Shown here piece by piece: positions 2,376-49,806 of a DNA stretch of 51,154 nt; the first letter of the stretch is position 1, and each line of letters opens with the position of its first letter. A model generated the notes under the pieces. The model was given only the letters and a program-made list of their open reading frames with translations. It had not been told where the DNA came from and did not search any database. Origin of the DNA: Escherichia phage damhaus; sequence record NC_049827.1; one strand, given 5' to 3'. The translations under genes were made by a program, and so were the position numbers.

Positions 2376-2394
2376 TTTTAACAAAAAGTGCTAT
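2376..2394 (-). promoter_or_regulatory. conserved intergenic box, inverted copy (late region)
   Basis: TTTTAACAAAAAGTGCTAT on + strand, reverse complement of the ATAGCACTTTTTGTTAAAA box; lies between a CATAAT hexamer and the chaperone RBS. Confidence 0.6.
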
Positions 2395-2407
2395 CAAGGA
2401 GAAAGAA

Positions 2408-2725
2408 ATGTCAAAAATGAAATTGACGATTGGGCCGCTTCCTGACTTTAAATTACCAGTGAAATTTGCAATGCCTAACGGAGAAGATCAAACAATTATC
2501 TTCACAGTTCGCCACCGCAAAACAAGTGAGATTCACGAGCGATACACGTCAGATACTCCAATGAGCGATGTTGAAATGATCACCTTCCTTGCTTCCGGTT
2601 GGAATCTTGATGATGAATTTAACGAAGAAAATATTAAACAGCTTCTTGATTACTACCCAGCAACAGCAATCGGATTAACTAGCGCATACATGAAAGCGCT
2701 TGCTGGGCAGCGAGTAAAAAACTAA
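2408..2725 (+). CDS. tail assembly chaperone (lambda G-like)
   Basis: 105-aa ORF directly upstream of tape measure gene; ends with slippery A_AAA_AAC before its stop. Confidence 0.7.
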   Translation: MSKMKLTIGPLPDFKLPVKFAMPNGEDQTIIFTVRHRKTSEIHERYTSDTPMSDVEMITFLASGWNLDDEFNEENIKQLLDYYPATAIGLTSAYMKALAGQRVKN

Positions 2726-3036
2726 AAAGGGCGGTTTACCTGTTTTATCAGAAACCGCCGACAGATGCAGAGCTTGAGGCCGTTGGCCTTACAAGGGCAG
2801 ACTATGAAGGAGAAGATCCGCCAGAGGTTATATTTGATGAAAGCATGATGCAATCATGGGATATATTTTGCGCAATGCAAACGCAATGGAGATGTTCTGG
2901 CGGTGGCGCTTACGGATTTGATTATAATGTCTTGCCTATGCTTTTTGAGATTTACAAGGTTGAGGATCGCGAGATGGCGCTAAACGACTTGCGAATCATG
3001 GAGCAAAAAGCACTTGAAATGATGCATTCAAAATAA
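2408..3036 (+). CDS. tail assembly chaperone frameshift fusion product (G-T-like), -1 PRF at 2716-2722
   Basis: -1 frame is open from about 2683 to the stop at 3034-3036; slippery heptamer A_AAA_AAC; 8-bp stem-loop begins about 7 nt downstream (about 2730-2759). Confidence 0.55.
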
Positions 3037-3057
3037 GCGCCTACGGGCGCTTTTTTA
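3036..3057 (+). terminator. rho-independent terminator-like hairpin
   Basis: GCGCC-TAC-GGGCGC hairpin plus T-run between chaperone T-frame stop and tape measure start. Confidence 0.55.
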
Positions 3058-3075
3058 TTACCTGGAGGATTAATA

Positions 3076-5748
3076 ATGTCAGAACAATACGCAGGCTTGA
3101 CGCTTGGGGTTGACGTTTCTCAACTCAACAATGCTGTAAAGTCTTTGCAGCAATTCAAGAAGGCAAACGACGACGCAAAGGGGAGCGTTGAGAGTTTTGT
3201 TGATTCAGAGGTTGTTGCAAGACAAAGAGCCAAACAACTGGCTGAGGAATTGGCAAAGCAGAAGCAAGAATTTAAAGCAATTCAGTCGGCAATAGATCCG
3301 ACAGCAAGCAAAATGGATAAGTTGCGCCAGGCTGCGACACAGCTTGATGCGCTTTGGAAAAAAGGAATTGTTCCTGATGACACATTCTTTGAATTAGGAT
3401 CAATTCTTGAGACGCAGCAAAATAAACTGATCGCAACTAAAAAGGCGCTAACTGAAGAAGGCCGCGCAGCGCTTGAGGAAGCAAAAAATAAGGCAAGAGC
3501 AGAGGCTGAGGCAAGAAAGTTCATTGCGGCATTGCAGGCGCAAGCTGACGCAGCGGAAAAAACAAAATCAGAGCTTGTAGAAATGAGAGCCGCACAACTT
3601 GGAGTTAGTGCAGAGGCCGCGCCATTTATTGCAAAAATGAAGGAGCAGGAAAAACAAGCCTCAAAACTTGGCGTTTCTATGGGGCAGTACAAGCAAGCAA
3701 TGGCGCAATTGCCAATGCAGATTACTGACGTTGTTACTTCTCTTGCTTCAGGTATGCCAGTATGGATGATCGCAATCCAGCAGGGCGGGCAAATCAAGGA
3801 CTCATTTGGCGGTGTTGCTAACACGTTTAAAGCGCTAATGACATTTGTCACGCCTTTAAGTGTAGGAATTACGGCGCTGACTGGTGCTCTTGGTTATGCT
3901 GCATATAATGCATACAAAGCAAATGCACAACTGAAGGAGATCACAAAAACCGTTCAGGAGGCAACTGGTCTTTCTGGTGATTTTGCGGAGCGGATTGCAA
4001 CTGGAATCCAGGCGCTATCTGACAAGACAGGTGAGAGCGCCGATAATCTGGCAAAGGCATACATAAGCACTAAGGATGGAGCAACCGAGGCCATACAAAA
4101 ACTCGTCGATGTTGGGTTTACCTATGACGAAGCAAAGGTAAAGGTAAACGAATACAAGAATGCATCAAGTTTTGTAAGTCTCAACAATGAGATTGCTGAT
4201 CACAAAAACAAGGTTCTTGAGCTTGGCGATTCGTGGTATGAAGTCTTAAAAGCGAAGAATGATTATGCTTCACCGTCCGGCGGGCTGTTGGGGAAAGAGC
4301 TTGGTTATGTAAATCCTATGTTGCAATTTGCGAAGAACACCTATGAGGATATAGGAAAGATCGTAAAAGATGCGAATAAGGATATGGCGGAACGAGCAGC
4401 ACGCATCGACAGAGAAAATCTTTCCTTAAACAGAGTTCGAGCGGCGCAAGAGGCTTTAAACAAAGCCATAGAGGATCAGAAAAATGTAGCAAGGACAGCA
4501 GACGAAGAGTTGAAAAAACGAGCAGCCGAGAACGTGGAGTTCAGGCGAAAAGAGCTTGAAGAGGCGAAGAAGGCGCAGCAGCAAAAGGAAAAAGTTGGTG
4601 GAGTTGTAAAAGCACCAACAGAGAAGCTTGATAAGGAGCTATATGTTCTCAAAGCGCAACTTGAAACACTAAAAGAGCACAGGACTGTAAATGATGTTAT
4701 TTCACGCCAGAGGCAATCTTTGTGGAGCATTGAAAAGCAGATCCAGATCCTAGAGGAAGCGCAAAGCAAACGTAAGCTGACAAAAGCGGAACAGGCGTTA
4801 CTAAACGAGCAAAAAACAGTTCTTGCTATGGCAAAAGAAAAGGCCGAGATAGGCGATCAGATTGTTTTGCAACAGAGAAAGAACAAGCAATACCAGGAAG
4901 GGCTAAAGTTCATTCAGCAAACTTCAGATGCCATTGATGCTATGAACTTGCGACAGTCTGGAGCTACAGATCTGCAAATCCAGCGAGAGCTTGAATTGAA
5001 AAAGTTGCGAACTGATTATGTTGCTGGCGGAGGTAGTATCGACGATGAAATTTATCAGCAGATGGAAGCAAAGCTGAAGGAGTATTACGCCACTGAGGAT
5101 CAGCTAAGAAATAACTGGATTGCAGGAGCAAAAAACGCATGGGAGGTTTACGGACAAGATGCAATGGATATGTACGGAAACGTGCAAGATATTGCAAGCG
5201 AGGCGCTCAACGGTCTAACCAACCAAATGGCTACATTCCTTGCAACAGGCAAGGCAAACTTTAAGAGCTTCGCAACGTCAATCATCCAAATGATTATCCA
5301 GATGATCACGAAGATGGTTATCTTTAATGCCATATCCGGTGCGGTTGGCGGTGACACTTGGACGATTGGAAGCCTTCTTAAAAATGTTGGATTTGCAACT
5401 GGTGGATACACTGGCGACGGCGGGAAGTATGAGCCAGCAGGTGTTGTCCATAAAGGCGAGTTTGTCATGACGAAGGAGGCCACGAAGCGGATCGGAGTTG
5501 GAAATCTTTACAAAATGATGCGCGGTTATGCAAATGGCGGCGTTGTTGGCGGCACTTCATACACTGGCGGCGGAGTTTCATCTGGAGCAACAAATCTTAA
5601 TATTGGCGGGATCAACGTTGATATTAACAACGGAAGCGATCCGAAAGGGTTGGAGACTGGCGTAAAAATGATTTTCACTGATATGATTAAGCGTTCCTGT
5701 ACGCAGGGTGGGGAAGTTTACGAATTTGTTATGTCTAAGCGGGGGTGA
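3076..5748 (+). CDS. tail tape measure protein
   Basis: 890-aa ORF, long coiled-coil-like charged/Ala-rich central region, glycine-rich C-terminal part; follows chaperone frameshift pair. Confidence 0.85.
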
Positions 5749-6101
5749 TAGTGAAACTTGAGCAATTTAAATGGTGTACGCAAACGCAAGGAGGCGGCGG
5801 CACTATGACCACATCAAATAACGACAGGGAAATCTCATTTGGTAATGGTTACACACAGGTTGCGTCAGGAGGGTTTAACACGGTACGCAGGGAGTTTTCC
5901 ATTGTCTATGTTGGCAAGGATTACAGAGACGTTGTTGACTTCCTGAATGGTCACAGGTTGAAGCCGTTTTTATGGTTTATGCCTGACGGTCAACCTGGTC
6001 TATTCAGGGTGAAATCCGGTAGTGTTGGATTAACGCCTGTATCAGCAACCGTTCAGGAAGTGAAAGCAACATTTACTGAGCAATTTACATCAATGCAATA
6101 A
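5745..6101 (+). CDS. minor tail protein (lambda M-like)
   Basis: 118-aa ORF starting at GTG overlapping tape measure stop; position in tail tip block. Confidence 0.6.
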
Positions 6102-6104
6102 TTC

Positions 6105-6129
6105 AAGCCGCCTTTGTGCGGCTTTTTTA
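6105..6129 (+). terminator. rho-independent terminator
   Basis: AGCCGC-loop-GCGGCT hairpin followed by TTTTTT. Confidence 0.65.
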
Positions 6130-6162
6130 TTGATGATACAATGCACGAAAGGAGGTGCAATT

Positions 6163-6924
6163 ATGGCTAATGAAACAACAGGTCGCGCAGATCTTGAAAA
6201 CTGTCTGCAAAGCCTTTACCCTGGCGAGATTATCACGCTAATTGAGATTGACGGTACAAAGTTTGGCGCAAACATTTACCGCATACACAATGAGAATATC
6301 TCATACACTGCGGAAGAATTATTGCAGGCGCGAGAAACTGGAGTTCTTCCGCCGAAAGAGATTACATTCCGTGGCGAGGTTTACGGCGCGCGCCCGTTCG
6401 GAATATCTGGAATCAACTTCACAAGCAACGGAAAGGCTGATAAGCCACAATTGATACTATCAAACCTTGATAGCCAGGTGAGCGCGATGATTCGCAACTT
6501 TAACGGCATGATGCAAGCTAAGGTTACAATCTGGATTACGCCAGCGGAATTAATGGGGAAAGATGGCAGCATTAAAGATGGAGCTTCAAGAAAGCTGGTT
6601 TACTACATTGAGCGCCCAAGCCATTACAATAGGATGATGGCAAAATTTGATCTGACATCGCCTTATGATATGGATGGAATAATGATTCCTCCGAGAATAA
6701 CTCAAAGCGTTTGTTATTGGGCGCAGCGTGGATGGTATCGCAGCGGAAAAGGTTGCGGATACAATGGATCGCGAATGTTTGACAAAGACAACAATCCTGT
6801 AACCGATCCATCTCAAGACTTTTGCGCCGGAACTGTAACCGCGTGCAAACTTCGTTTTGGTGCAGATAAGCAGCTTGATTTTGGAGGTGCACCAGTAGCA
6901 AGCCTGTTAAGGAGAAATCAGTGA
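6163..6924 (+). CDS. minor tail protein (lambda L-like)
   Basis: ATG at 6163 with AGGAGG RBS (track start 6130 is TTG); 253 aa; position between M-like and K-like genes. Confidence 0.6.
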   Translation: MANETTGRADLENCLQSLYPGEIITLIEIDGTKFGANIYRIHNENISYTAEELLQARETGVLPPKEITFRGEVYGARPFGISGINFTSNGKADKPQLILSNLDSQVSAMIRNFNGMMQAKVTIWITPAELMGKDGSIKDGASRKLVYYIERPSHYNRMMAKFDLTSPYDMDGIMIPPRITQSVCYWAQRGWYRSGKGCGYNGSRMFDKDNNPVTDPSQDFCAGTVTACKLRFGADKQLDFGGAPVASLLRRNQ

Positions 6925-7655
6925 TGATTAGTGCAAAAATTAAACTTGAAATAATGCAGCACGTAAAAGATGAATACCCGCGCGAGGCTTGCGGTGTTAT
7001 CACTCAAAAATCACGCGTGCAAAAATACCACCGCATAACCAACGTGCATGATGATCCTGAAAATCATTTTGAGATGGACGCAATTGAATACGTTGAAGCG
7101 TGCGAAAGTGGCGAGCTTATTGCTGTTGTGCATAGCCACACTGGAGACGGGGCAAGTACAATCCCAAGCGCCCATGATACATGCATGTGTGATGAAATGG
7201 GTGTTTCATGGGTTATTGTGTCATGGCCCGAAGGTGATATGAGAATAATTGAGCCTGAATCTCGTCCTCTGATTGGTCGCCCGTGGTCGCTTGGTGCGTA
7301 TGATTGCTGGGGGCTTATTATGGAATGGCACAAGCAACATGGAGTTATCCTGAATGATTTCAGGAAACCATATGAATGGTGGAAGCCTGAGCACGGTGAA
7401 AATCTTTATCAAGAAAATTATCTGAAAGAGGGTTTTGTTGAAACAGGAGAGCCGCCAAAACCTGGTGATATGGTTATCTTTCAGCTTTCCGCGCCAGTGT
7501 GGAATCATGCAGGCATTTATCTTGGCAACAATCAGTTGCTTCATCATGCCTTTGGTAAGTTGTCGAGGGTTGATTTGTATTCTGGATGGTATCAGGAACA
7601 TGCAAAAATGGTTTGTAGACATAAGGATCTGAAATATGACTTTGAAGGTGATTAA
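6924..7655 (+). CDS. tail assembly protein (lambda K-like; MPN/JAMM plus NlpC/P60-like motifs)
   Basis: JAMM-like HSHTGDGASTIPSAHD motif and downstream Cys/His (DCWGL...H) typical of K-family tail proteins. Confidence 0.75.
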   Translation: MISAKIKLEIMQHVKDEYPREACGVITQKSRVQKYHRITNVHDDPENHFEMDAIEYVEACESGELIAVVHSHTGDGASTIPSAHDTCMCDEMGVSWVIVSWPEGDMRIIEPESRPLIGRPWSLGAYDCWGLIMEWHKQHGVILNDFRKPYEWWKPEHGENLYQENYLKEGFVETGEPPKPGDMVIFQLSAPVWNHAGIYLGNNQLLHHAFGKLSRVDLYSGWYQEHAKMVCRHKDLKYDFEGD

Positions 7656-8232
7656 ATTATCTGGATCTTTAGGGCGAAGATTTGGTGTATTTCATAAGAT
7701 GGCTGTTGACTCATACCCTGAAGCAATCCGTGCGCTATCTTCGCAGGTGGAAGGATTCAAGGACTACATGCAAAGCGAAGTAGGATCGCGAATGCGTTAT
7801 GCTGTATTTGTTGACGGTAATAATGTAGGACAGCACGACGAAAAAGCGTGGCAATGCGCAAAGGAAGTGAGGATTATTCCAATCCCAACAGGTTCAAAGT
7901 CTGGCGGGTTGTTTCAGGTTGTTCTTGGCGCGGTTATTATGGCGACTGCATTTTTCACTGGCGGCGCTTCACTTGCGTTGATGGGTGCTTTTGCATCGTC
8001 TGCTTTCATGATGGGTGGAGCCATGGTACTTGGCGGAGTAATGCAAATGATCTCACCTCAGCAAGGAGGATCAAGATTGTCATCCCAATCAGCAGAAAAC
8101 AAGCCGTCTTATGCTTTCGGTGGCGCTGTTAACACAACGGCAGCAGGATACCCAATACCATTGCCATATGGTAAAAGGACCGTCGGCGGAGCTATCTGGT
8201 CGGCTGGCAGCTATGCAGAGGATAAGGCTTAA
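7636..8232 (+). CDS. tail assembly protein (lambda I-like)
   Basis: 198-aa ORF with hydrophobic Gly/Ala-rich C-terminal half, between K-like and J-like genes. Confidence 0.6.
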   Translation: MTLKVIKLSGSLGRRFGVFHKMAVDSYPEAIRALSSQVEGFKDYMQSEVGSRMRYAVFVDGNNVGQHDEKAWQCAKEVRIIPIPTGSKSGGLFQVVLGAVIMATAFFTGGASLALMGAFASSAFMMGGAMVLGGVMQMISPQQGGSRLSSQSAENKPSYAFGGAVNTTAAGYPIPLPYGKRTVGGAIWSAGSYAEDKA

Positions 8233-8240
8233 TATAAAAG

Positions 8241-8267
8241 AGTCGCGCGTTGCGCGGCTTTTTTTTT
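8241..8267 (+). terminator. rho-independent terminator-like hairpin
   Basis: GC-rich imperfect hairpin followed by a T-run of about 9. Confidence 0.5.
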
Positions 8268-8313
8268 GCCCGTATAATTCAACAAATCAAATAGCACAAA
8301 AGGTGAAAAAAGC

Positions 8314-11300
8314 ATGGCTGAAAATATGATAACGGGAAGTAAGGGCGGATCATCAAAACCTTATGTTCCGAAAGAGATGGAAGATAACCTGATCTCAATC
8401 AACAAAATCAAAATCCTTCTTGCCGTTTCCGATGGCGAGTGCGATCCAGATTTTACACTTCGCGATCTGTATCTTGATGATGTTCCGGTAATTGCAGACG
8501 ACGGAACTGTTAACTACAAGGGTGTGAAAGCTGAATTTCGACCTGGAACGCAGACGCAAGATTACATCCAGGGGTTTACTGACACATCAAGCGAAGTGAC
8601 GCTGGCGCGTGACATTACGACGACAAATCCTTATGTAATTTCCGTAACCAACAAAACATTATCGGCTATCAGAATCAAAATGCTAATGCCAACAGGCATT
8701 AAGCAAGAGGATAACGGCGATCTTGTCGGCGTTAAGGTTACTTATGCTGTTGATATGGCTGTTGACGGAGACTCTTACAAAGAAGTATTGCGAGACACTA
8801 TCGAAGGTAAAACGCGTTCAGGTTACGACAGAAGCCGAAGGATTGACCTTCCGGCATTTAATGATCGCGTATTACTTAGGGTTAGAAGGGTTACGGCAGA
8901 CAGCGCATCTTCTCGCGTTACTGATCTGATTAAGCTACAAAGTTACGCTGAGGTTATTGATGCAAAATTCCGTTATCCTCTGACTGGTCTTGTATACGTT
9001 GAATTTGACAGTGAGTTGTTCCCTAACCAGATCCCTAACATTTCAATCAAGAAGAAATGGAAGTTGATTAATGTTCCGAGCAATTACGATCCGGTAATGC
9101 GAGAGTATCACGGTTCATGGAATGGCACGTTCAAGAAAGCGTGGTCGAACAATCCGGCGTGGGTACTTTATGACATTATCACAAACCAGCGATACGGATT
9201 AGATCAGCGAGAGCTTGGTGTGCAGGTTGACAAATGGAGTCTTTACGAAGCGGCTCAATACTGCGATCAGAAAGTGCCGGACGGAAAAGGCGGCACAGAG
9301 CCGCGTTATCTATGCGACGTTGTGATTCAAAGTCAGATTGAGGCTTATCAGCTTATTCGTGATATTTGCTCAATCTTCCGAGGCATGAGCTTTTGGAATG
9401 GAGAGAGCTTGTCAATCGTCATTGATAAGCCGCGCGATCCGTCGTACATCTTCACAAATGACAATGTTGTTGATGGTGATTTTCAGTACACAACAGCAAG
9501 TGAAAAGAGCATGTACACGCAGTGCAACGTGACTTTCGATGACGAACAAAACATGTATCAACAGGACGTAGAGGGTGTATTCGACACAGAGGCCGCATTG
9601 CGCTTTGGATACAATCCTACAAGCATAACCGCGATCGGATGTACACGCAGGAGTGAGGCAAATCGGCGCGGTCGATGGATACTAAAAACCAACTTGCGCA
9701 GCACTACGGTAAACTTTGCTACTGGACTGGAAGGCATGATCCCATCAATAGGTGATGTGATTGCTATTGCTGACAATTTTCACAGCAGCAACCTTAAATT
9801 AAACCTATCAGGGCGCGTGATGGAAGTTTCCGGCTTGCAGGTATTCGTTCCGTTTAAGATTGATGCTAGACCAGGTGATTTCATTATCATCAACAAGCCG
9901 GACGGTAAGCCAGTTAAGCGCACAATCTCAAAGGTAAGCGGTGACGGAAAAACCATTGAGCTAAACATAGGGTTTGGGTTTGAAGTTAAGCCGGATACAG
10001 TTTTTGCAATCGACCGCACTGATATTGCATTGCAGCAATACGTTGTTACGTCTATCAGCAAAGGTGATGATGAGGATGAATTTACATACTCCATCACGGC
10101 TGTTGAATATGATCCTAACAAATACGACGAGATTGATTACGGAGTAAACATTGACGACAGGCCAACTTCAATTGTCCAGCCTGACACGATGGCAGCACCG
10201 GAAAACGTGCAAATATCCTCATACTCGCGAATTGTCCAGGGTGCAAGCGTTGAAACAATGGTTGTGTCGTGGGATAAAGTACCTTACGCATCACTGTATG
10301 AAATGCAATGGCGTAAAGGCGATGGCAACTGGCTGAATACACCACAGACCGCAAACAAAGAAATTGAGGTTGAAGGTATTTATTCAGGAAACTACCAGGT
10401 AAGGGTGAGATCTGTTTCTGCTTCCGGTTCGACTTCGCCGTGGTCCAGAATTGTGACAGCTTCACTGACTGGTAAGGTAGGAGAGCCAGGCGCGCCAGTT
10501 AACTTAACCGCATCCGACAATGAAGTTTTTGGCATTCGTGTTAAGTGGGGGATGCCAGAAGGGAGCGGAGACACGGCATACATTGAGCTTCATCAGTCGC
10601 CGGATGGAACGGCTGAAAACTCAAGCCTGCTAACGCTGATCCCGTATCCACAATATGAATACTGGCATGGAACGCTTCCGGCTGGTCATGTTGTATGGTA
10701 TCGGATCAGGAGCGTAGACAGGATCGGCAACGTTTCCGGTTGGACTGATTTTGTTAGAGGTATGGCTTCAGATGATGTGGAGGCTGTTTTAGGAGATATT
10801 CTTGACAAGATTTTTGATACTGAAGCAGGTCAGGATCTGAAAGAGAACGCCATTGACAGTGCAAACAAGATAAAGGACCAGGCGCAAGCAATCATCCAGA
10901 ATGCTCTTGCTAATGATGCTGATATTAAGTGGACGCGAGTACAAAACGGAAAGAGAAAGGCTGAATATGGTCACGCTCTTGAGCTTATAGCCACAGAGAC
11001 TGAGGCACGAGTTACGCAGATTGAAGAATTGAGGGCGTCAATAGACGAGGATATTGTTTCAAGCATAAAGACAGTGCAGGAGGCTATCGCCACAGAATCT
11101 GAAACGCGAGCAACTCAAATAAACGCTTTGGATTCAAAATTCACAACTGAAATTGACGGCGTAAAACGCGATACAGCAGCAAGCATTAATCAGGTGAATC
11201 AAACAATTGCCAACGAATCTGAAGCGCGAGCGCAGGCCGTTAACGCTCTTGATGCGAAGTTCACAAAGGAGATCGAAGATTTAAACGGAGTTATTAAGAC

Positions 11301-11892
11301 TGAGGTTGAGGCTAACATCTCTGAAGTGAAACAGGCTATCGCTAACGAGACAGAAGCAAGGGTGCAGGCTGACCAGGCGTTAACAGCTAAGTTTGGAGAC
11401 GTTGAATCTGCATTAACTCAAAAACTTGATTCATGGGCTAGTGTGTCGTCTGTTGGAGCTAAATACTCAATGAAATTGGGGTTAACATACAACGGTCAAC
11501 AGTACAGCGCAGGAATGGTAATGCAGCTTTCGCAGAGTTCATCCGGCCTTATCTCGCAGATTTTGTTTGATGCGAACAGGTTCGCCATCATGACAAGTTC
11601 GACTGGCGGGGTGTATACGCTGCCTTTCGTGGTGGAAAATAACCAGGTATTCATTAACAGCCTGTTAGTGAAAAACGGTTCAATCACCAATGCGATGATC
11701 GGTAATTATATTCAGTCGAATAACTTTGTTGCCAACTCGACGGGGTGGAGGCTGGATAAAAACGGCAGATTTGAGAACTACGGTTCGACTTCTGGAGAAG
11801 GGGCCATGAAGTTGACCAATGAAACAATAAGTGTGCGAGACGCAAACGGGCGCTTGCGTGTTCAGATTGGTAGGCTTACTGGTACGTGGTAA
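8314..11892 (+). CDS. central tail fiber / host specificity protein (lambda J-like)
   Basis: 1192-aa ORF after I-like gene; fibronectin-III-like segment; C-terminal tandem repeats of about 33 aa. Confidence 0.85.
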   Translation: MAENMITGSKGGSSKPYVPKEMEDNLISINKIKILLAVSDGECDPDFTLRDLYLDDVPVIADDGTVNYKGVKAEFRPGTQTQDYIQGFTDTSSEVTLARDITTTNPYVISVTNKTLSAIRIKMLMPTGIKQEDNGDLVGVKVTYAVDMAVDGDSYKEVLRDTIEGKTRSGYDRSRRIDLPAFNDRVLLRVRRVTADSASSRVTDLIKLQSYAEVIDAKFRYPLTGLVYVEFDSELFPNQIPNISIKKKWKLINVPSNYDPVMREYHGSWNGTFKKAWSNNPAWVLYDIITNQRYGLDQRELGVQVDKWSLYEAAQYCDQKVPDGKGGTEPRYLCDVVIQSQIEAYQLIRDICSIFRGMSFWNGESLSIVIDKPRDPSYIFTNDNVVDGDFQYTTASEKSMYTQCNVTFDDEQNMYQQDVEGVFDTEAALRFGYNPTSITAIGCTRRSEANRRGRWILKTNLRSTTVNFATGLEGMIPSIGDVIAIADNFHSSNLKLNLSGRVMEVSGLQVFVPFKIDARPGDFIIINKPDGKPVKRTISKVSGDGKTIELNIGFGFEVKPDTVFAIDRTDIALQQYVVTSISKGDDEDEFTYSITAVEYDPNKYDEIDYGVNIDDRPTSIVQPDTMAAPENVQISSYSRIVQGASVETMVVSWDKVPYASLYEMQWRKGDGNWLNTPQTANKEIEVEGIYSGNYQVRVRSVSASGSTSPWSRIVTASLTGKVGEPGAPVNLTASDNEVFGIRVKWGMPEGSGDTAYIELHQSPDGTAENSSLLTLIPYPQYEYWHGTLPAGHVVWYRIRSVDRIGNVSGWTDFVRGMASDDVEAVLGDILDKIFDTEAGQDLKENAIDSANKIKDQAQAIIQNALANDADIKWTRVQNGKRKAEYGHALELIATETEARVTQIEELRASIDEDIVSSIKTVQEAIATESETRATQINALDSKFTTEIDGVKRDTAASINQVNQTIANESEARAQAVNALDAKFTKEIEDLNGVIKTEVEANISEVKQAIANETEARVQADQALTAKFGDVESALTQKLDSWASVSSVGAKYSMKLGLTYNGQQYSAGMVMQLSQSSSGLISQILFDANRFAIMTSSTGGVYTLPFVVENNQVFINSLLVKNGSITNAMIGNYIQSNNFVANSTGWRLDKNGRFENYGSTSGEGAMKLTNETISVRDANGRLRVQIGRLTGTW

Positions 11893-11898
11893 AATCAA

Positions 11899-11922
11899 AG
11901 CGGGGCGCTTGCCCCGCATTTA
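11899..11922 (+). terminator. terminator-like hairpin after J-like gene
   Basis: GCGGGGC-GCTT-GCCCCGC hairpin followed by ATTTA (weak U-tract). Confidence 0.45.
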
Positions 11923-11935
11923 TGGAGGTTTAATA

Positions 11936-12241
11936 ATGGCTGAATATGGTGTTTCAACGTGGGATGCTAACGGTAAGTATAACAACTACGGAATCAAGCC
12001 AGTTTCCGTTGTTGGTGTCATCAGCCTTGCCGCTGGTCAGACAAGCGGATCGTGGAGCTTTAGCATTCCAAGTGGTTTTAAGATTGGGTATGTTGTTTCA
12101 CTTGATGAAGGTGCTAGAGGAGTTGGAAGGGAAATAGTAGCATCTGGAAATACAATAAGAATTAGTCCTACATCGTCAATCGGTGCAAATAGGTATTCTT
12201 CTTCAAAGTGCGAGTTAGTTGTTTTTCTTGAGAGGGTTTAA
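11936..12241 (+). CDS. putative receptor-binding protein 1
   Basis: GGAGG RBS; 101 aa starting MAEYG...WDANGK; immediately downstream of J-like gene. Confidence 0.5.
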   Translation: MAEYGVSTWDANGKYNNYGIKPVSVVGVISLAAGQTSGSWSFSIPSGFKIGYVVSLDEGARGVGREIVASGNTIRISPTSSIGANRYSSSKCELVVFLERV

Positions 12242-12242
12242 A

Positions 12243-12881
12243 ATGGCTGAGTATGGAGCGATGTTATCATTATCAAATGGGAATCCATTTGTTACACCAA
12301 AATCAACGCCATTTTGCTTATATGGCAAGTACACTTATTCATCTTCAGGTACTTCTGCCTATCATAGCGCAAGCGCAAATATACCAGTAAATCAATCTTA
12401 TCCATGCATGGCATTTATAAAAACAACAAACACACAGCAGCCAACTGCATTAATAGCTTACAGGAACGGTGGTAATATTTATGTAAACGGAGGTAATCCA
12501 TACGGGCAATCATTTACAATGACTGTTTATATATTTGCCATATTCCCTCAAAATCTACCAAAATATGGCATGGCTATATGGGATGCAAGCGGCAAGTTGG
12601 TTTTAACTAATGAAAGCAGGGTGCTAACAGACCTTGTGACAATTGGTACTCCTGGCTCTTCAGGTGGGACGAATATAGATCAGACATTATCTGGTTCTTA
12701 TGCCGTTTGCCCATCAAGGCTTGGTGCGGTTATAGGTATGGGTGCGTCTGACATATATACATCATGCAGGTATAATGGTTCAGTCACAAGGATAGGTGCA
12801 GCAAGGACAACTCCAGGGACGGGTTCTATAACAAATAACGGAAATTCAATAATTGCAATAAAGACTGATATTTACGACTAA
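12243..12881 (+). CDS. putative receptor-binding protein 2 (paralog)
   Basis: 212 aa, same MAEYG N-terminus and an internal YGMAIWDASGK repeat of the motif. Confidence 0.5.
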   Translation: MAEYGAMLSLSNGNPFVTPKSTPFCLYGKYTYSSSGTSAYHSASANIPVNQSYPCMAFIKTTNTQQPTALIAYRNGGNIYVNGGNPYGQSFTMTVYIFAIFPQNLPKYGMAIWDASGKLVLTNESRVLTDLVTIGTPGSSGGTNIDQTLSGSYAVCPSRLGAVIGMGASDIYTSCRYNGSVTRIGAARTTPGTGSITNNGNSIIAIKTDIYD

Positions 12882-12883
12882 TG

Positions 12884-12912
12884 AAAAAGGGGCTTTCGCC
12901 CCTTTGTTTTTA
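12884..12912. terminator. bidirectional rho-independent terminator
   Basis: AGGGGC-TTTC-GCCCCT hairpin flanked by an A-run and a T-run between convergent genes. Confidence 0.65.
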
Positions 12913-12913
12913 T

Positions 12914-13141
12914 TTACAGACTGCAATCAGCGTTTTTAAAGTTGTCAATGCTTACCCACTGAAAATTAAACGGATAGCCAGCCTTAACAAGAGTGCGGTC
13001 GCCAACTCGTTTTACTCCAAAAATAGCAACTGAATACTGCATACCGCTATTTTCATAAATAGCCGTGCATTCACGTTTAGGCATATTTGCGCAACCAGTC
13101 ATGGTTACGGCTGCAATCAAAACGGCGATTAATTTTTTCAT
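12914..13141 (-). CDS. small outer-membrane lipoprotein, putative superinfection-exclusion (Cor/Llp-like)
   Basis: 75 aa with signal peptide and lipobox (MTGC); convergent with receptor-binding-like genes as in T1/T5-type phages. Confidence 0.55.
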   Translation of the reverse strand: MKKLIAVLIAAVTMTGCANMPKRECTAIYENSGMQYSVAIFGVKRVGDRTLVKAGYPFNFQWVSIDNFKNADCSL

Positions 13142-13196
13142 CTTGGTATCTCCTTCGTTGTTGTTGGTTGCAACTATACACGATCTTACAGCAGGC

Positions 13197-13217
13197 GTTT
13201 AGCAAAAAGTGCTATTC
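13197..13217 (-). promoter_or_regulatory. conserved intergenic box, degenerate copy
   Basis: reverse complement reads GAATAGCACTTTTTGCTAAAC; on the minus strand followed by TATAGT and the leader/RBS of the lipoprotein gene. Confidence 0.5.
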
Positions 13218-13585
13218 TGTTCTTTTTGTTCTCGCGTGTTCTCAAATCTGCGGAGTCTTAAATTTAGCTCAAAAAGTGAACAATAATAGAGAGCAATACA
13301 TACAGATAAATATATATACATACATATAAATCAATAAGTTAGTAGTATATATATTTATGTTTGTTCTTTATTGTTATCTATGTTTTGTGTGATTTTGTGT
13401 GTCTGGTGATTTTTCTGTGATTATGCATGTGTCAGTGGTTATGTGTGCCTATATATCTATATCCGGCGCAAATTGAGGAACAAGAGAACAAAACGACAAC
13501 AAAGATATTTATCAATCACTTACATGTAAGTTTTGTTATCCAAATTGACGAGAACGTTGTTAAAACAGAAAAAACAAAATAACTA

Positions 13586-13613
13586 TTGACTAAACGCATC
13601 AAATAGCTACAAT
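13586..13613 (+). promoter_or_regulatory. sigma70-type promoter (TTGACT-N16-TACAAT)
   Basis: near-consensus -35 and -10 hexamers about 30 nt upstream of the exonuclease start. Confidence 0.6.
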
Positions 13614-13642
13614 GCAGACATACCAACCAATGAGGGCAAATC

Positions 13643-14704
13643 ATGAATAAGTTTATGGCGTACACCAGCGAAGAAATGAGTAATGATCTTTATCACGATC
13701 CAGAAGCGTGGACGGCTGACTATGTTAGTGGATCAAGCCTGGCCGAGATTTACAGCACATGCCCGGCGGCGTGGAAGTTCAAGCCTCGTGACGATAATAG
13801 CAAGGCGCTAGTTTTTGGTACACAGTCGCATACCAACTTTGAAAGCAAGGAGCTTTTCGAAAAAACCTATCGACGCGCGCCAGCGCCAGAAGACTTTAAG
13901 GATCTGATAACTAGCCAAACTGCGCTTGCCGCAAAACTGAAATCATTTGGCCTGAAAGGTACAACCGGAAAGACTTATCCAGACCTTATCAAAATGATGG
14001 TCGATTGCGGAGAAGACCTTAACGTTATGTGGTTGATTGAGATGATCGAAGAAAGCCAGGCCAGAGCCGACGGAGTGCAGCTAATCGACGCTAAAGACTA
14101 CGACGCTTGCGTTGCAATGCGCCAGGTTCTGGAATCAATACCGGAACATAACGCATGTATGAATAGCAAGACAGCACAACGTGAATTATCGTTGTTCGGT
14201 GAAATCAACGGCGTAAAAGTCAAAGTGCGATGCGATCACGTTGACGTAACAAAGAACGTGACAGCAACTCTGATTGATGGTTACGATGAAAAAGGTCAAC
14301 CGATTTGCCGCGATATTATTTATCCAGAGGCCATTGTGATCACAGACTACAAAACCACGATGAGCGCGAATCCGTCTGAGTTTATGCGCCTGGCTTACAA
14401 TCACGGCTATTATTTGAAAATGGCGTTGCAATGTGATTTATTCAGGAAAGCGTATCCAGAAGAAAAGCGACCTATAGTTGTTCGCCTGTTAGCACAGGAG
14501 AAGAAAGAGCCTTATTTGCCGTTGGCTTTCCGCATGAACAACGAGCAATTGAAGATTGGGCGCATTCAGTACATGAGCGTGATTAACCAGTTTGCCATGT
14601 GCCAGCAACATGACGTTTGGCCTTCGTATTCAAACGGTGAGCCGGAGGTTTGTCTTGATACTCCTGATTGGGTGCGACGTCAGTTTAAGCAATATCTTAT
14701 TTAA
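13643..14704 (+). CDS. PD-(D/E)xK recombination exonuclease
   Basis: 353-aa ORF with IVITDYKTT (D-x-K) nuclease motif; first gene of exonuclease / annealase / SSB module. Confidence 0.6.
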   Translation: MNKFMAYTSEEMSNDLYHDPEAWTADYVSGSSLAEIYSTCPAAWKFKPRDDNSKALVFGTQSHTNFESKELFEKTYRRAPAPEDFKDLITSQTALAAKLKSFGLKGTTGKTYPDLIKMMVDCGEDLNVMWLIEMIEESQARADGVQLIDAKDYDACVAMRQVLESIPEHNACMNSKTAQRELSLFGEINGVKVKVRCDHVDVTKNVTATLIDGYDEKGQPICRDIIYPEAIVITDYKTTMSANPSEFMRLAYNHGYYLKMALQCDLFRKAYPEEKRPIVVRLLAQEKKEPYLPLAFRMNNEQLKIGRIQYMSVINQFAMCQQHDVWPSYSNGEPEVCLDTPDWVRRQFKQYLI

Positions 14705-14785
14705 ACAGCACAAATAGCTAAACAAATGAAAAATGCGGTGTTATAATTCACCGCATAAGTTAACAACAAGTGTGAGGAAATAAAC

Positions 14786-15064: not shown

Positions 15065-15109
15065 CAGCAATAAGGCGGCGAAAGCCGCCATTAGTTACGG
15101 GAATTAATC

Positions 15110-15766: not shown

Positions 15767-15772
15767 TTGACA

Positions 15773-15796: not shown

Positions 15797-15810
15797 CAGG
15801 AGAATAAATA

Positions 15811-36596: not shown

Positions 36597-36617
36597 ATAG
36601 CACTTTTTGTTAAAAAC
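36595..36617 (+). promoter_or_regulatory. conserved intergenic box copy
   Basis: AAATAGCACTTTTTGTTAAAAAC overlapping the TAA stop; followed by CATAAT. Confidence 0.7.
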
Positions 36618-36696
36618 GCCAATCTGAAAACCTGGCATAATGCATCACATAGGGCGGCACGGCGTCGCCCAGTTAAACCAATCAGGAGAAAGTACC

Positions 36697-37026: not shown

Positions 37027-37605
37027 GTGGATAATATCAAGTATCCGATTGTTTTTCATTGTGGCGGTTCAACAATCAGGTTCACATCGCGCGACAATGG
37101 CGTTTATAGCGATGGTCAGAAATCAGAGTTGAAAGTTGATTTCTTTGTTAATGGTCACAACAAATTCAATCCGCACAATGAAACTGGCAATGTGTACTAC
37201 GTGGAAGACATTACAAAACACTTGTTTGGGGAAACACCATTCGGCGGCGGGAAGACGTCAATTCAACAAATCATTGGCGAGGAGATCCACAAGGCAGCCG
37301 TTGAAATGAAAGCGCCTGGAGGCTGTAAGATTGATAAAATCGACCTTATCACCATTCGCTCAAAGATTGGCGGAGTTGAATACGAGGGCAAAATTGAAAA
37401 AATGCCGCTCGGCGCTTCAATTATCGGCATCAAAGACGACAACGGCGATTGGCATGATGTTTCTTTCCCGATCAAGCGTATCGAAGTTCTCGACGACTTG
37501 ATTTGCCTCCTGGCGCATCATGGCAGCTATAAGAACAATCCGTTCTCCGCAGAGCTAAACATCAAGCGCGGAACGCTGGTTAAGTGGAAGGTTAAGTGTA
37601 AATAG
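37027..37605 (+). CDS. hypothetical protein
   Basis: 192-aa ORF; only possible start is GTG without a clear SD; ends inside a box copy. Confidence 0.45.
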   Translation: MDNIKYPIVFHCGGSTIRFTSRDNGVYSDGQKSELKVDFFVNGHNKFNPHNETGNVYYVEDITKHLFGETPFGGGKTSIQQIIGEEIHKAAVEMKAPGGCKIDKIDLITIRSKIGGVEYEGKIEKMPLGASIIGIKDDNGDWHDVSFPIKRIEVLDDLICLLAHHGSYKNNPFSAELNIKRGTLVKWKVKCK

Positions 37606-37621
37606 CACTAATTGTTAAAAC
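37600..37621 (+). promoter_or_regulatory. conserved intergenic box copy (variant)
   Basis: AAATAGCACTAATTGTTAAAAC overlapping the TAG stop; TATAAT about 17 nt downstream. Confidence 0.65.
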
Positions 37622-37674
37622 TCAAATGTGGGGCCAAGTATAATGGCCTCACTTTCAACGAAGGAGATAAAACG

Positions 37675-38078: not shown

Positions 38079-38614
38079 AAAAATACGAATTTGAACTTTG
38101 GGGAAGCAAATACCATTTTTCCACTAGCAAGCCGATTGTTATTGTTGACCTTGACGGCACGTTATCAGATGGAACGCACCGCTTGCACCTGCTGCCGACA
38201 GAAGATTTGCACCTTACAGAAAGCTGGTCTGAGTTCAACAAAGCGGCTGTTGGCGATTCGCCGATTAAGAGCACGGTTTCAGTGGTTAACGGATTGTGGA
38301 TGTCAGGATTTGCCATCGTTATCCTGACAGGGCGCAGCGATGAGGTGATGGCTGACACCTGCGACTGGTTAAATTATAACGGCATCAAGTACGACGCGTT
38401 AATCATGCGCCGAAAGGAAGATAACCGAAAAGACACGATCATCAAAGAGGAAGTCTTGCGAGCTATCGGACTGGAAAACATTGTGTGCGCTTTTGATGAT
38501 TCGCCGAACGTGGTTAAGCACTTCCGCAGCCTGGGAATCACAACCTATCAGGTCACGGAATACGAAAAGCCACATAATCACATCCAATCGCACGGCGTGG
38601 ATGAATTAAAATAG
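38075..38614 (+). CDS. HAD-superfamily phosphatase (polynucleotide 3'-phosphatase-like)
   Basis: DLDGTL (DxDxT) motif near the N-terminus; start at Met5 overlapping the upstream stop. Confidence 0.6.
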   Translation: MKKYEFELWGSKYHFSTSKPIVIVDLDGTLSDGTHRLHLLPTEDLHLTESWSEFNKAAVGDSPIKSTVSVVNGLWMSGFAIVILTGRSDEVMADTCDWLNYNGIKYDALIMRRKEDNRKDTIIKEEVLRAIGLENIVCAFDDSPNVVKHFRSLGITTYQVTEYEKPHNHIQSHGVDELK

Positions 38615-38630
38615 CACTTTTTGCAAAAAC
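38609..38630 (+). promoter_or_regulatory. conserved intergenic box copy (variant)
   Basis: AAATAGCACTTTTTGCAAAAAC overlapping the TAG stop; followed by hairpin and TATAGT. Confidence 0.65.
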
Positions 38631-38685
38631 AGATTGTCGGGCTTGCGGTATAGTAAGCCCATCGACAACGAAAAAGGAAAACATC

Positions 38686-39381: not shown

Positions 39382-39972
39382 ATGAAAAGAGACATTATCA
39401 TCCTTAACGGACCGCCAGGGGTTGGCAAGGATACGCTTGCGGCATACTTAACGGGCCATCGTTACGCAGCCGTTAAAGCGTCGTTTAAACAGCCTATGTT
39501 TGATATTGCGTTTTCCATGCTTGGCGTTTACCGATATGACGAGTTCATTGATCTGTATAACGACCGCGAGCAGAAAGAAAAGCCTCAAGCAATCTTGCAA
39601 GGCAAGTCGCCTCGCCAGTTCATGATCTGGATTAGCGAAGAAGTTATGAAGCCAGCTTTTGGCGAGCAATATTTCGGAAATCGCATGGTTGAGCAAGTAC
39701 ACGAGATGTACAGAGATTTAGCTGTTGTAATTAGTGATGGCGGATTCCCTGAAGAAATCAAACCGCTCGTTAAGGCAGGCCATGAAGTTCACATTTGCCG
39801 ACTGCATCGCGAAGGCTTCACGTTTGATGGCGATTCACGAAACTATATTGACCTGAGCGGATACCATCACCGCGTAAAACATTACGACTTCACAATGATT
39901 GATGGCGATCAAGAAAAGACTGTTGACGAGATCATCAAAACGGTCCAGTGGAAACACATTAAGATCAAATAG
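39382..39972 (+). CDS. P-loop nucleotide kinase (dNMP kinase-like)
   Basis: GPPGVGKDT Walker A near the N-terminus, a GKDT-type motif as I recall it from phage dNMP kinases; start at Met6. Confidence 0.55.
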   Translation: MKRDIIILNGPPGVGKDTLAAYLTGHRYAAVKASFKQPMFDIAFSMLGVYRYDEFIDLYNDREQKEKPQAILQGKSPRQFMIWISEEVMKPAFGEQYFGNRMVEQVHEMYRDLAVVISDGGFPEEIKPLVKAGHEVHICRLHREGFTFDGDSRNYIDLSGYHHRVKHYDFTMIDGDQEKTVDEIIKTVQWKHIKIK

Positions 39973-39988
39973 CACGAATTGCTAAAAG
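39967..39988 (+). promoter_or_regulatory. conserved intergenic box copy (variant)
   Basis: AAATAGCACGAATTGCTAAAAG overlapping the TAG stop; hairpin then TATAAT about 18 nt downstream. Confidence 0.6.
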
Positions 39989-40042
39989 CGGGGCGCAATG
40001 CCTCGCTATAATGCAAACACCAATCAACGAGAGGAAATCATC

Positions 40043-41025: not shown

Positions 41026-41313
41026 ATGGCTAAAAGCTATCGTAAAATGTTGATTAACGCATTCGAAAAGGCAGCGCTTGAGCGTGGTTGGAATGACTCA
41101 TTTCACACAGCAAACTGTATCCGCCGTTACGGATTCAAGAATTGCCGCTCATGGGCGCGTGAAATGGCTTCATGGTATGATCTTGATGCGCATTACCTTG
41201 ATATGGATTGCGCCCTGGTTGAAATGATTGAACAGGCAGCATTAGAGGATCGACCATTAACGCAATCTGATTTTGACGATTTTGTGCGCGATGAAATTTA
41301 TTATATGAGCTAA
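41026..41313 (+). CDS. hypothetical protein
   Basis: 95-aa ORF with AAAGGAGG RBS. Confidence 0.55.
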   Translation: MAKSYRKMLINAFEKAALERGWNDSFHTANCIRRYGFKNCRSWAREMASWYDLDAHYLDMDCALVEMIEQAALEDRPLTQSDFDDFVRDEIYYMS

Positions 41314-41332
41314 TAGCACTTTTTGTTAAAAC
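41312..41332 (+). promoter_or_regulatory. conserved intergenic box copy
   Basis: AATAGCACTTTTTGTTAAAAC directly after the TAA stop. Confidence 0.65.
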
Positions 41333-41388
41333 TTCCGCGAGGGCATTTGTTAAAGTGTCCTCATTGAAGCGAAACAGAGGAAAGCGCA

Positions 41389-43396: not shown

Positions 43397-43445
43397 TGTT
43401 TGCAATTTGTCTATAATGAGGCTTTGTTATAAAGGAGGGCGCATT

Positions 43446-48776: not shown

Positions 48777-49289
48777 ATGGCTACAATTGGAGCAAGCTAC
48801 TTTGCTGTAATGTCTCGTGCGTTACCTGGTCAGGTTTCTGACACTTCGGCTTATAATATTGATGGCGCTTGTGTTCTTGAGAATGCGGCAGGCAATCAGA
48901 ATCAGTCTGTTTTTGTTGGTGTGGCGGTCCAGCATGGCGGCGTTGACGCTATGGGCAATAAGCTAATTAAGCCGATGGCGGCAAGCGGCAAGGCTTACGG
49001 CGTTGCAATTCGATCTCACTTTCAGACAACTTCGTCTGACGGTCGAATGATTTATGAATCTGGCGGCGGAATCAACGTAATGACTGAAGGGCGTGTTTGG
49101 ATGTTGGCTAAAGACGCCTCCGCGCCAGCGTTCGGCACTACAATCAAACTGTCTGACGATGGTCAGGTTGATACCGGGTCTGGCACTATCGAAACAAACT
49201 GGATCGCGACTGGTGATTTCACCAAGTTTCAAGACTTGAAGCTGGTAGAGGTTCAGGTGCAAAAAGTTCCGGCAGTTTCAGCAGGTTAA
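48777..49289 (+). CDS. putative capsid decoration / structural protein
   Basis: 170-aa ORF with GGAGA RBS upstream of major capsid gene; paralog of next ORF. Confidence 0.5.
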   Translation: MATIGASYFAVMSRALPGQVSDTSAYNIDGACVLENAAGNQNQSVFVGVAVQHGGVDAMGNKLIKPMAASGKAYGVAIRSHFQTTSSDGRMIYESGGGINVMTEGRVWMLAKDASAPAFGTTIKLSDDGQVDTGSGTIETNWIATGDFTKFQDLKLVEVQVQKVPAVSAG

Positions 49290-49295
49290 TAAATA

Positions 49296-49320
49296 CGGCG
49301 CTCACTGAGCGCCTTTTTTA
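49296..49320 (+). terminator. rho-independent terminator
   Basis: GGCGCTC-ACT-GAGCGCC hairpin followed by TTTTTT. Confidence 0.7.
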
Positions 49321-49334
49321 TATTTGGAGTTCTC

Positions 49335-49769
49335 ATGAGTGATTATTCAGTCATTGTTGGCGCTGAGTCGCCAGGGTGCATGGTCGATTCTTCAATAATG
49401 GTGATTAACGGATCTTTCGTGTGCGGAGATGAATTTATTGCGCCAGGTAAGATTGTGCGACTATCACATATAACAAATGGATACAAAATAGCAAGTGTTA
49501 ATGGGGATCTCGTTATTGGCGTGGCAGTAAGGCCGCCGGACTCGTGCATATATGAGGAGGGCGATCCAGTTAATGTGGTTAGTCGAGGTAGTGTTTGGTG
49601 CTTAACTTCTGAGAGCGAAGCGCCAGAATATGGAGATAAAGTATTTGTAACGCAAGATGGATATGCGGCATACAGTGAAGGCGACTTGCTGATTGGTTGG
49701 ATCTTTACTGGCGAACATGTAAAGGTTGATCATGATTCATATATTGTCGGGGTAAGCATTGACTCATAA
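49335..49769 (+). CDS. putative capsid decoration / structural protein (paralog)
   Basis: 144 aa sharing the G(V/I)A(V/I)R ... VW(M/C)L ... A(P/E) pattern with the preceding ORF. Confidence 0.5.
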   Translation: MSDYSVIVGAESPGCMVDSSIMVINGSFVCGDEFIAPGKIVRLSHITNGYKIASVNGDLVIGVAVRPPDSCIYEEGDPVNVVSRGSVWCLTSESEAPEYGDKVFVTQDGYAAYSEGDLLIGWIFTGEHVKVDHDSYIVGVSIDS

Positions 49770-49787
49770 CACAAAATTATGTTGCAC

Positions 49788-49806
49788 GTTTAACAAAAAA
49801 TGCTAT
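49788..49806 (-). promoter_or_regulatory. conserved intergenic box, inverted degenerate copy (late region)
   Basis: GTTTAACAAAAAATGCTAT on + strand upstream of the major capsid gene, followed by a hairpin and RBS. Confidence 0.5.

Follow-up and report, generated by a model that had tools for sequence, protein, structure and literature searches.

What protein, if any, reads the short sequence that recurs twenty times in the genome of Escherichia phage damhaus? The DNA considered here (sequence record NC_049827.1; 51,154 nucleotides, the whole of which we call the window) is the genome of a T1-like siphovirus of the Drexlerviridae, Tempevirinae, Hanrivervirus, and is about 93–96% identical to Shigella phage pSf-1 and to Escherichia phages herni, aaroes and JakobBernoulli. 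An earlier reading of the sequence alone (the original prediction) had described a 22 bp box, in most copies followed by an inverted repeat and a -10-like hexamer, and had proposed a separate promoter class that needs a phage factor or uses the box as an UP or activator site. By its sequence and geometry the box is a consensus class II marbox, and we think it rather likely that the host activators Rob, MarA or SoxS (RamA in Klebsiella) serve the boxes as class II marbox promoters.

The 22-mer AAATAGCACTTTTTGTTAAAAC has 13 matches in the window at three or fewer mismatches, against 0.01 expected, and 17 at five or fewer. With the published marbox consensus GCAHWWWWTGYYAAA as the query, 20 sites are obtained at no more than one mismatch (16 perfect and four with a single mismatch), compared with 2.6 ± 1.65 in shuffled sequences. 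This bears out the earlier count of at least 18 and adds three copies, at 14703–14724 (+), 21516–21537 (-) and 33024–33045 (-). Eighteen of the 20 face the downstream gene and two (2375–2396 and 49787–49808) are antisense within the late operon, in agreement with the earlier description of most copies as co-oriented with the genes and of two (2376 and 49788) as inverted in the late region. Both antisense copies are kept at the same two places in T1, at 18831(-) and 15067(-).

Conservation of the box across the family is well established. Amongst related Drexlerviridae, T1 carries 22 marbox-consensus sites, JakobBernoulli 21 and Klebsiella phage NJR15 18; lambda, taken for comparison, has two, neither of them perfect and neither with a -10 element. 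The box was also seen in a Klebsiella Webervirus and in the most divergent T1-like genomes reached, and in a scan of viral contigs it was multi-copy solely on T1-like contigs of 40–52 kb. Divergent relatives were examined for an altered box (HCF1, Vc1 and a metagenomic contig) and it was the same in all. The central T-run is one base short in some boxes of Citrobacter phage HCF1, at 7317(-) and 6221(-), and of Vibrio phage Vc1, at 13199(-). In these shortened boxes the promoter-proximal half still lies 18 nt from the -10 and, as there are four A's at the end of the box, CACT-N7-AAA survives the loss.

The repeat itself has been published. The T1 genome paper reportedly called such repeats 'enhancers'. 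A re-annotation of phage TLS from 2024 described a 21 nt direct repeat, aaATAGCACnnnTTGnTAAAA, present in 21 copies along the direction of transcription and about 76 nt ahead of start codons, with TTT, GAA and AAA subtypes, and noted it also in T1, Rtp and Rogue1 (PMC11447400). That work found three sigma70 promoters only, and offered stoperators, enhancer sites and UP elements as ideas for the repeat (PMC11447400). The box considered here is the same element in consensus, copy number (about 20), direction, subtypes and distance to the start codon; the box at 25548, for example, is 78 nt from the ATG at 25626. The TLS authors left the function open and did not remark on the fixed spacing to the -10 or on the identity with the marbox. 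The original prediction had not recognized the box as a described motif; it is both the published T1-like repeat (PMC11447400) and equal to the E. coli marbox (PMC6900184).

The marbox is a 20 bp asymmetric site that is bound by monomeric AraC-family activators, with RamA amongst them in Klebsiella and Salmonella. The consensus for MarA, SoxS and Rob is 5'-GCAHWWWWTGYYAAA-3' (PMC6900184), and its halves, CACT and AAA, are 7 nt apart and each read by one helix–turn–helix (HTH) motif of the activator (PMC8811837). Positions 6–20 of the phage box, GCACTTTTTGTTAAA, match this consensus at 15 of 15 positions and those of the GAA subtype at 14 of 15, with GCAC as the promoter-distal half, YYAAA as the promoter-proximal half and 7 nt between. 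To follow variation we pooled cassettes from T1-like genomes, 335 unique ones being read in one fixed register counted from the box; further pooled sets comprise 309 cassettes with a loose anchor, 332 used for stop codons, and 202 and 137 distinct cassettes used for hairpins. In the loosely anchored set positions 11 and 12 are A or T in 97–98% of cassettes, where the consensus has W, position 16 is C or T in 96% (consensus Y), position 9 is C in 93% (consensus H), and positions 18–20 are A in 94–96%. Judged by these frequencies, the box varies only where the marbox consensus is degenerate. The reverse complement of the mar operator marbox, ATGCCACGTTTTGCTAAATC, has 15 of 20 positions in common with the box, including all of TTTTGCTAAA. 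Amongst chromosomal marboxes compared by means of the 15-mer, micF matches at 14 of 15 positions, and inaA and nfo are too degenerate to give a match within three mismatches.

Other regulators were considered and set aside. The sigma54 consensus is TGGCAC-N5-TTGCW, with GG and GC exactly 10 bp apart and the start 12 nt downstream; the corresponding part of the box, TAGCAC-N3-TTGYT, is 2 nt short, has AG and not GG, and is followed at 18 nt by a sigma70 -10. The Lrp consensus, YAGHAWATTWTDCTR, agrees at 12 of 15 positions; it was dropped because the marbox agrees at 15 of 15 and fits orientation and spacing too. Inspection by eye of the consensus sequences for CRP, FNR, Fis, IHF, ArcA and sigma32 gave no fit.

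Downstream of the box the cassettes have a constant anatomy. A -10 hexamer occupies cassette positions 41–46 (T63 A81 T65 A57 A52 T81, in per cent of the 335 unique cassettes) and is often extended, with G at -14 in 78% and T at -15 in 48%. It is followed after 7 nt by a conserved CA at positions 52–53, the predicted start of transcription, and then by a conserved leader, tCGAAACGA. The leader sequence CATCGAAACGA, which begins at the predicted start and occupies cassette positions 52–64, is present in most cassettes (36182–36194 and 34750–34761 are examples), and in some copies a 5' stem-loop, TATCTCatcgaaacGAGATA, is formed with it. The spacer between the box and the best -10 is 18 nt in 185 pooled cassettes, 17 nt in 15 and 19 nt in 21. 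In the window it is 18 nt in 14 of the 20 copies, 17 nt in five and 19 nt in one, a tighter range than the 17–24 nt given earlier, and A2 and T6 of TATAAT are kept in 19 of the 20. In this register the box extends from -52 to -31, and the hexamer in the -35 slot of the window copies has a mean of only 2.15 of six matches to TTGACA, the poor agreement that had been noted before. The TTGYTA within the box was rejected as a -35 element, lying as it does 22 bp from the -10, which is too far. Taken as sequence, the cassettes are a separate promoter class, with an upstream box and an often extended -10 and without a -35; the assignment upholds that of the original prediction and is based on the constant distance of 18 nt, on the extended -10, on a start site that is conserved and on an orientation towards the genes. 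The original prediction had found canonical TTGACA promoters only in the two large non-coding regions; matches to canonical sigma70 promoters are nowhere enriched in the window over shuffled sequence (24 versus 39, 28 versus 37 and 15 versus 16).

In class II marbox promoters a forward marbox lies over the -35, the sites being clustered at -41; these promoters have no recognizable -35 (a mean of 1.9 of six matches), and in structures of class II complexes Rob or SoxS displaces sigma region 4 from the -35 (PMC10268841, PMC12052159, PMC8811837). The E. coli K-12 micF promoter, which we read directly, consists of GCACTGAATGTCAAA, 20 nt and TAGAAT, with the RNA start 8 nt past the hexamer and the centre of the marbox at -41. 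The phage core is likewise followed by 20 nt (19–21) and then the -10, which is the micF spacing in the same strand sense, and the phage marbox is centred at -40 or -41 relative to the predicted start. Consensus, forward orientation (18 of 20), overlap of the -35 near -41, and a sigma70 -10 without a -35 are thus all found in the phage sequence, and motif identity, geometry and promoter signature can be taken as established.

From this match we infer binding by Rob, MarA or SoxS and a dependence of transcription on them. A host activator would bind the box, stand in for the contact of sigma region 4 with the -35, and recruit host RNA polymerase by touching sigma region 4 and the alpha C-terminal domain; transcription would then begin at the conserved CA, 7 nt after the -10. 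Rob, which is constitutive and abundant and binds with high affinity, would for those reasons be the likeliest activator in unstressed cells, with MarA or SoxS acting under stress. About 18 such promoters would drive the replication, recombination, methylase and small-open-reading-frame (small-ORF) genes, each gene or gene pair having a cassette of its own.

The inverted repeats noted in most copies by the original prediction are of two kinds and are not universal. Some 80% of the 137 distinct cassettes have one and 25 are without a hairpin; of the 20 window copies, only about 12 have a stable one. In one form the spacer contains the hairpin, which stops at the -10 and has the T-rich sequence there as its tail; the T1 record annotates such spacer hairpins as rho-independent terminators. 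In the other form the arms flank the -10, with the 3' arm between the -10 and the start, and there is no U-tract. The minimum free energy (MFE) of cassette positions 23–56 is -8.8 kcal/mol, compared with -5.8 ± 0.16 kcal/mol when the 3' part is swapped between cassettes, which indicates that the complementarity of the arms is real and under selection. Amongst the 202 distinct cassettes, an MFE of -6 kcal/mol or lower is reached by 73% of those in which a co-directional ORF ends at the box and by 27% of the others (p = 1e-8). The window copies without such an ORF (13196, 22004, 33024 and both antisense copies) lack a good hairpin at the -10 or around it, and the cassette at 34791, the first of the leftward arm and preceded only by a 64-codon ORF, has no spacer hairpin and a stem-loop in its leader. 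Since hairpin strength tracks the presence of a co-directional upstream ORF, the hairpin appears to belong to the upstream gene and not to the promoter, and we interpret the GC hairpins as probable terminators or 3' stem-loops of the preceding gene. A terminator may fit into the spacer because the region from -35 to -17 is free of sequence constraints in a class II promoter.

Packing extends to the stop codons. The box had been described as always intergenic, but about two thirds of the 332 unique cassettes have the stop codon of the preceding gene inside the box or abutting it: TAG at positions 4–6 in 138, TAA at 17–19 in 37, and TAA or TGA at 0–2 in 50. Coding sequence and activator site therefore overlap where the stop codon is inside the box, and this packing accounts for position 5 being always A where the marbox consensus has n. 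ORFs that end inside boxes are found, for example, at 24533, 25553, 37605, 38614, 39972, 28810, 30977 and 31653.

Does the phage itself encode a protein that could read the box? With MarA and SoxS as queries against the phage, phmmer and tblastn gave no match better than E = 0.07. Thirty ORFs of the early region, scanned against Pfam, contained no AraC-type HTH and no match to the MotA or AsiA family. A phage-encoded MarA-like protein was accordingly rejected as the reader of the box, none being found by phmmer, tblastn or Pfam. The sole conserved HTH regulator is a Cro-like protein of 157 amino acids, the homologue of T1 ST23, encoded at 21519–21992 (-) and assigned to Pfam YdaS/P22_Cro; it is a core gene, present in 841 phage records. 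The predicted structure is a single all-alpha HTH domain (AlphaFold2 pLDDT 87.8), with the Cro proteins of Xfaso1 and N15 as the best Foldseek matches, preceded by an invariant N-terminal basic arm (residues 13–33, DKRTxNGNNGTRRGxDKKxRK) in which the confidence of the model is low. The recognition helix is amongst the least conserved parts of the protein (SQQTVNQW versus DVCRLTNAY in the alignment), and the box is unchanged in those genomes. A variable helix over an unchanged box weakens the Cro-like regulator as its reader.

The regulator gene has a near-consensus sigma70 promoter of its own at 22044–22071 (-), TTGAGT-16-TATAAT, with the helicase box in its 5' untranslated region. The helicase marbox promoter, at 22004–22048 (+), consists of box CAATAGCATTTTTTGTTAAACG, 17 nt and TATTAT, and the two -10 elements overlap on opposite strands within the palindrome GTGTAT-T-ATACAC at 22040–22052; the layout as a whole takes up 22040–22071 and 21993–22037. 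This divergent arrangement is kept in T1 and NJR15, and as sequence it looks like a mutually exclusive switch.

The regulator provides the basis for one alternative, in which the box is the operator of a phage activator: a Cro-like dimer, made early from its own sigma70 promoter, would bind TAGCA-N5-TGYTA, centred near -42. Much as lambda cI does at PRM, or as Mu Mor does, it would activate the promoters that carry a box, and its own gene would be repressed through the box in the leader. The core status of the gene in 841 records, the near-consensus promoter with a box in its leader and overlapping -10 elements (a layout shared with T1 and NJR15), the predicted Cro-like fold and the imperfect box palindrome with its A/T-rich centre can all be accommodated in this way. 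We nevertheless regard it as unlikely. The recognition helix varies where the box does not, the asymmetric conservation of the box and its strict orientation to the -10 are better suited to a monomer with two HTH motifs than to a symmetric dimer, and the 15 of 15 marbox match, with variation at the degenerate positions, would have to be a coincidence. For similar reasons the phage factor that the original prediction had suggested as one possibility is not the best candidate, there being no AraC-type protein, and a constant box facing a variable Cro-like helix. Alternatively, host RNA polymerase may read the box alone, as an UP-like element or as a substitute for the -35 in support of an extended -10, no activator being required. 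UP-like elements were amongst the suggestions of the TLS authors (PMC11447400), there are A and T tracts in the box, an extended -10 with TGn is present in many copies, and the phage grows in unstressed laboratory cells. Set against this, an alpha C-terminal domain in contact with the minor groove would not be expected to require the invariant G6, C7, C9 and G15, and the box occupies -52 to -31, whereas the UP range is -59 to -38. TTGYTA, at 22 bp from the -10, is too distant for sigma region 4, and the hexamer that does lie where a -35 should has only about two of six matches to TTGACA. We consider the polymerase-alone explanation quite improbable. The earlier suggestion of an UP or activator site is accordingly retained as to the activator site and abandoned as to the UP element, given the invariant G/C positions and a box that reaches -31.

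Two further explanations assign the box a function other than initiation, and we give each of them very little credence. The first idea in the TLS paper was that the repeats are stoperator-like, sites within transcription units at which a repressor blocks elongation. There are indeed many same-orientation copies between genes, a T1 box lies over the start of the terS promoter, and two copies are placed within the late operon; yet a -10 hexamer at 17–19 nt and a conserved start in 19 of the 20 copies would be needless for a roadblock, and the phage has no repressor or lysogeny module. The box with its hairpin could instead be a nut-type RNA element acting in antitermination or processing on read-through transcripts, as the original prediction had offered by way of alternative. 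That a hairpin follows the box in about 80% of distinct cassettes, with the selected arm complementarity described above, counts in favour of such an element. Its position and loop are, however, not conserved, it occurs in two classes, about one fifth of cassettes (25 of 137) are without it, and there is no Rfam match; what is conserved is a pair of promoter signals in the DNA, TGnTATAAT and CA, and the strength of the hairpin goes with the upstream gene: where no co-directional gene precedes the cassette, the box is kept and the hairpin is absent. An additional role, compatible with that of a promoter, is that the cassettes, of about 90 bp, are also patches of recombination homology that would shuffle small genes amongst T1-like phages, in the way of the promoter-early stem-loop (PeSL) cassettes of T4-type phages. 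Near-identical cassettes flank most small ORFs, a box on the previous stop codon marks exact gene boundaries, the gene content of these arms differs in close relatives (70–88% coverage at 93% identity), and the phage encodes Erf and exonuclease recombination genes. The exact identity that is shared amounts to only 22 bp plus short motifs, and we think such a role possible, if on the unlikely side.

The reading that we favour, activation by Rob, MarA or SoxS at class II marboxes, has its own difficulties. In unstressed cells Rob is largely sequestered and MarA and SoxS are scarce, and T1-like phages nevertheless plaque well on laboratory K-12. Box position 21, which is A in 72%, differs from the Y of the older 20 bp consensus. 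The same boxes occur in Vc1, which is labelled as a Vibrio phage, the palindrome TAGCA-N5-TGYTA would suit a dimeric phage protein, and the extended -10 TG, found in nine of the 20 copies, might suffice without an activator. Activation by the MarA/SoxS/Rob family is usually two- to fourfold only (PMC8811837). Our literature search returned no paper linking marboxes with phage promoters, and neither start mapping or a transcriptome for the Drexlerviridae nor data for Rob, MarA or SoxS on phage DNA. All of these points weigh against the proposal, as do three copies that do not fit simple activation.

Two of the three are the antisense copies of the window. One, at 2351–2396 (-), is between the genes for the major tail protein and the tape-measure chaperone and is followed after 18 nt by TAGCAT; the other, at 49763–49808 (-), is just upstream of the major capsid gene and has a poor -10, TATGAG. 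Within window 2300–2396 (-) the TAGCAT is followed by about 20 nt up to the terminator hairpin of the major tail protein gene, and the layout in T1, at 18831(-), is the same. Judged from this layout, the antisense box at 2375 could give an antisense RNA of about 45 nt. The third is the T1 copy at 8360–8381, a perfect marbox over the -10 and the start of the promoter of terS, the small terminase gene, which is a repressing position. Its counterpart in the window, at 43400–43445, is a degenerate remnant only, located after a TATAAT at 43413–43418.

The remaining cassettes conform to the general pattern. On the plus strand, the promoter of the Dam methylase gene (24528–24573) has box AAATAGCACTTTTTGTTAAAAC, an 18 nt spacer with a GC hairpin, and CATAAT, with the ATG at 24608; the VRR-NUC gene upstream stops at the TAG within this box. 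The cassette at 25548–25593 has a perfect box, a terminator-like spacer hairpin and CATAAT (gene start 25626), and that of the recombination block, at 14703–14747, combines a one-mismatch marbox with TGtTATAAT (gene start 14786). In the same orientation there follow 36131–36176, with a spacer hairpin and TGgAATAAT (gene start 36210); 36595–36641, with a 19 nt spacer and TGgCATAAT; 37600–37644, a TAA variant with a 17 nt spacer and TATAAT; 38609–38654, which has one mismatch, in the promoter-proximal half, and whose -10 lies between the arms of an inverted repeat (gene start 38686); 39967–40012, a GAA variant with a spacer hairpin and TATAAT; and 41311–41356, in which an inverted repeat flanks the -10 of TGtTAAAGT (gene start 41389).

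On the minus strand, a marbox at 13173–13217 provides the putative promoter of an isolated cor-like gene (ATG 13141). The cassette ahead of the primase gene, at 21492–21537, consists of box TGAAAGCACTAATTGCTAAAAA, 18 nt and TGtTATCAT; the hairpin around its -10 is followed by a T-run and so would double as the terminator of the regulator gene. A spacer hairpin is present at 28770–28815 (gene start 28732), and the cassette ahead of a 545-amino-acid helicase-like gene, at 30937–30982, is a GCAT variant with a hairpin around the -10. The others are 31613–31658, with TGgCATAAT (gene start 31581); 33001–33045, a GAA variant with one mismatch (gene start 32970); 33891–33936, in which an inverted repeat flanks the -10 (gene start 33859); and 34767–34812, which opens the leftward small-ORF arm and has TGgTATAGT (gene start 34729).

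Elsewhere in the window, terminator-like hairpins are enriched in the late structural region (1–20000), with 37 against 19.5 ± 3.8 in shuffled sequences, several of them bidirectional; this fits the 'transcripton' layout that is said to characterize T1. The large divergent non-coding region contains four direct repeats of (C/G)TGTTAT, about 9–10 bp apart, at 34990–35040, and these could be iterons, an origin or regulator sites. An Rfam scan and a tRNA scan each gave zero matches.

T1-like phages are classic and abundant coliphages of the gut and of sewage and are candidates for phage therapy. The class II marbox reading provides a concrete hypothesis for their early and middle transcription, the promoters for which had stayed unidentified. 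We advance as a tentative proposal, to which we assign somewhat less than an even chance, that the Drexlerviridae have wired nearly all of this transcription (about 18–22 promoters per genome) to host MarA, SoxS and Rob (RamA) by way of consensus-strength class II marboxes, so that phage development is tuned to the stress and efflux state of the host, replicating genomes could titrate the activators and one antisense box may drive an antisense RNA. If so, a virulent phage family would depend on the host activators that switch on multidrug efflux, and bile salts, salicylate, oxidants or mar mutations would boost its development. With about 20 perfect sites in every copy, hundreds of replicating genomes could draw the activators away from the host resistance regulon, and the small antisense RNA would parallel the marbox-driven micF RNA. 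Phage susceptibility would be tied to antibiotic-stress physiology, in mar, sox and rob mutants, in RamA-overexpressing Klebsiella and in the presence of gut bile, with a bearing on phage–antibiotic combinations. The cassettes would also constitute a set of natural and compact consensus marbox promoters for studies of class II activation.

Several known systems invite comparison. As in the middle promoters of T4, a -10 is kept, an activator box replaces the -35 and there are many copies at early or middle genes. The MotA box (TGCTTtA) is, however, centred at -30 and needs phage MotA and AsiA, whereas the phage box described here is 20 bp long, is centred at about -41 and matches the site of a host activator. 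The likeness to T4 middle promoters proposed in the original prediction therefore extends to the logic, an activator replacing the -35 contact, and not to membership of that class, given the different centre and the lack of a MotA or AsiA family match. The PeSL cassettes of T4-type phages also combine a repeated intergenic promoter with a stem-loop and flank small variable ORFs; unlike those considered here, they are ordinary sigma70 early promoters. The stoperators of mycobacteriophage L5 resemble the boxes in being short asymmetric sites, in about 20–30 copies with one orientation to transcription, but they bind a phage repressor and have no fixed relation to a -10; the boxes differ in their fixed spacing to the -10, and the phage is virulent. 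They differ also from lambda nut sites. There too a conserved box (boxA) is followed by a hairpin (boxB), but the boxB loop is conserved and acts in RNA, whereas here the loops vary, the hairpin is optional and the signals are in the DNA. The closest parallel is with micF, and also with lpxC P2, lpxL P1 and rfaY P1, in which a forward marbox occupies the -35 slot with its centre at about -41 and 20 nt before the -10. Chromosomal marboxes are degenerate and scattered, whereas the phage has 16 perfect sites in 51 kb of a lytic genome and, unlike the chromosomal sites, each box is fused to the stop codon and hairpin of the preceding gene.

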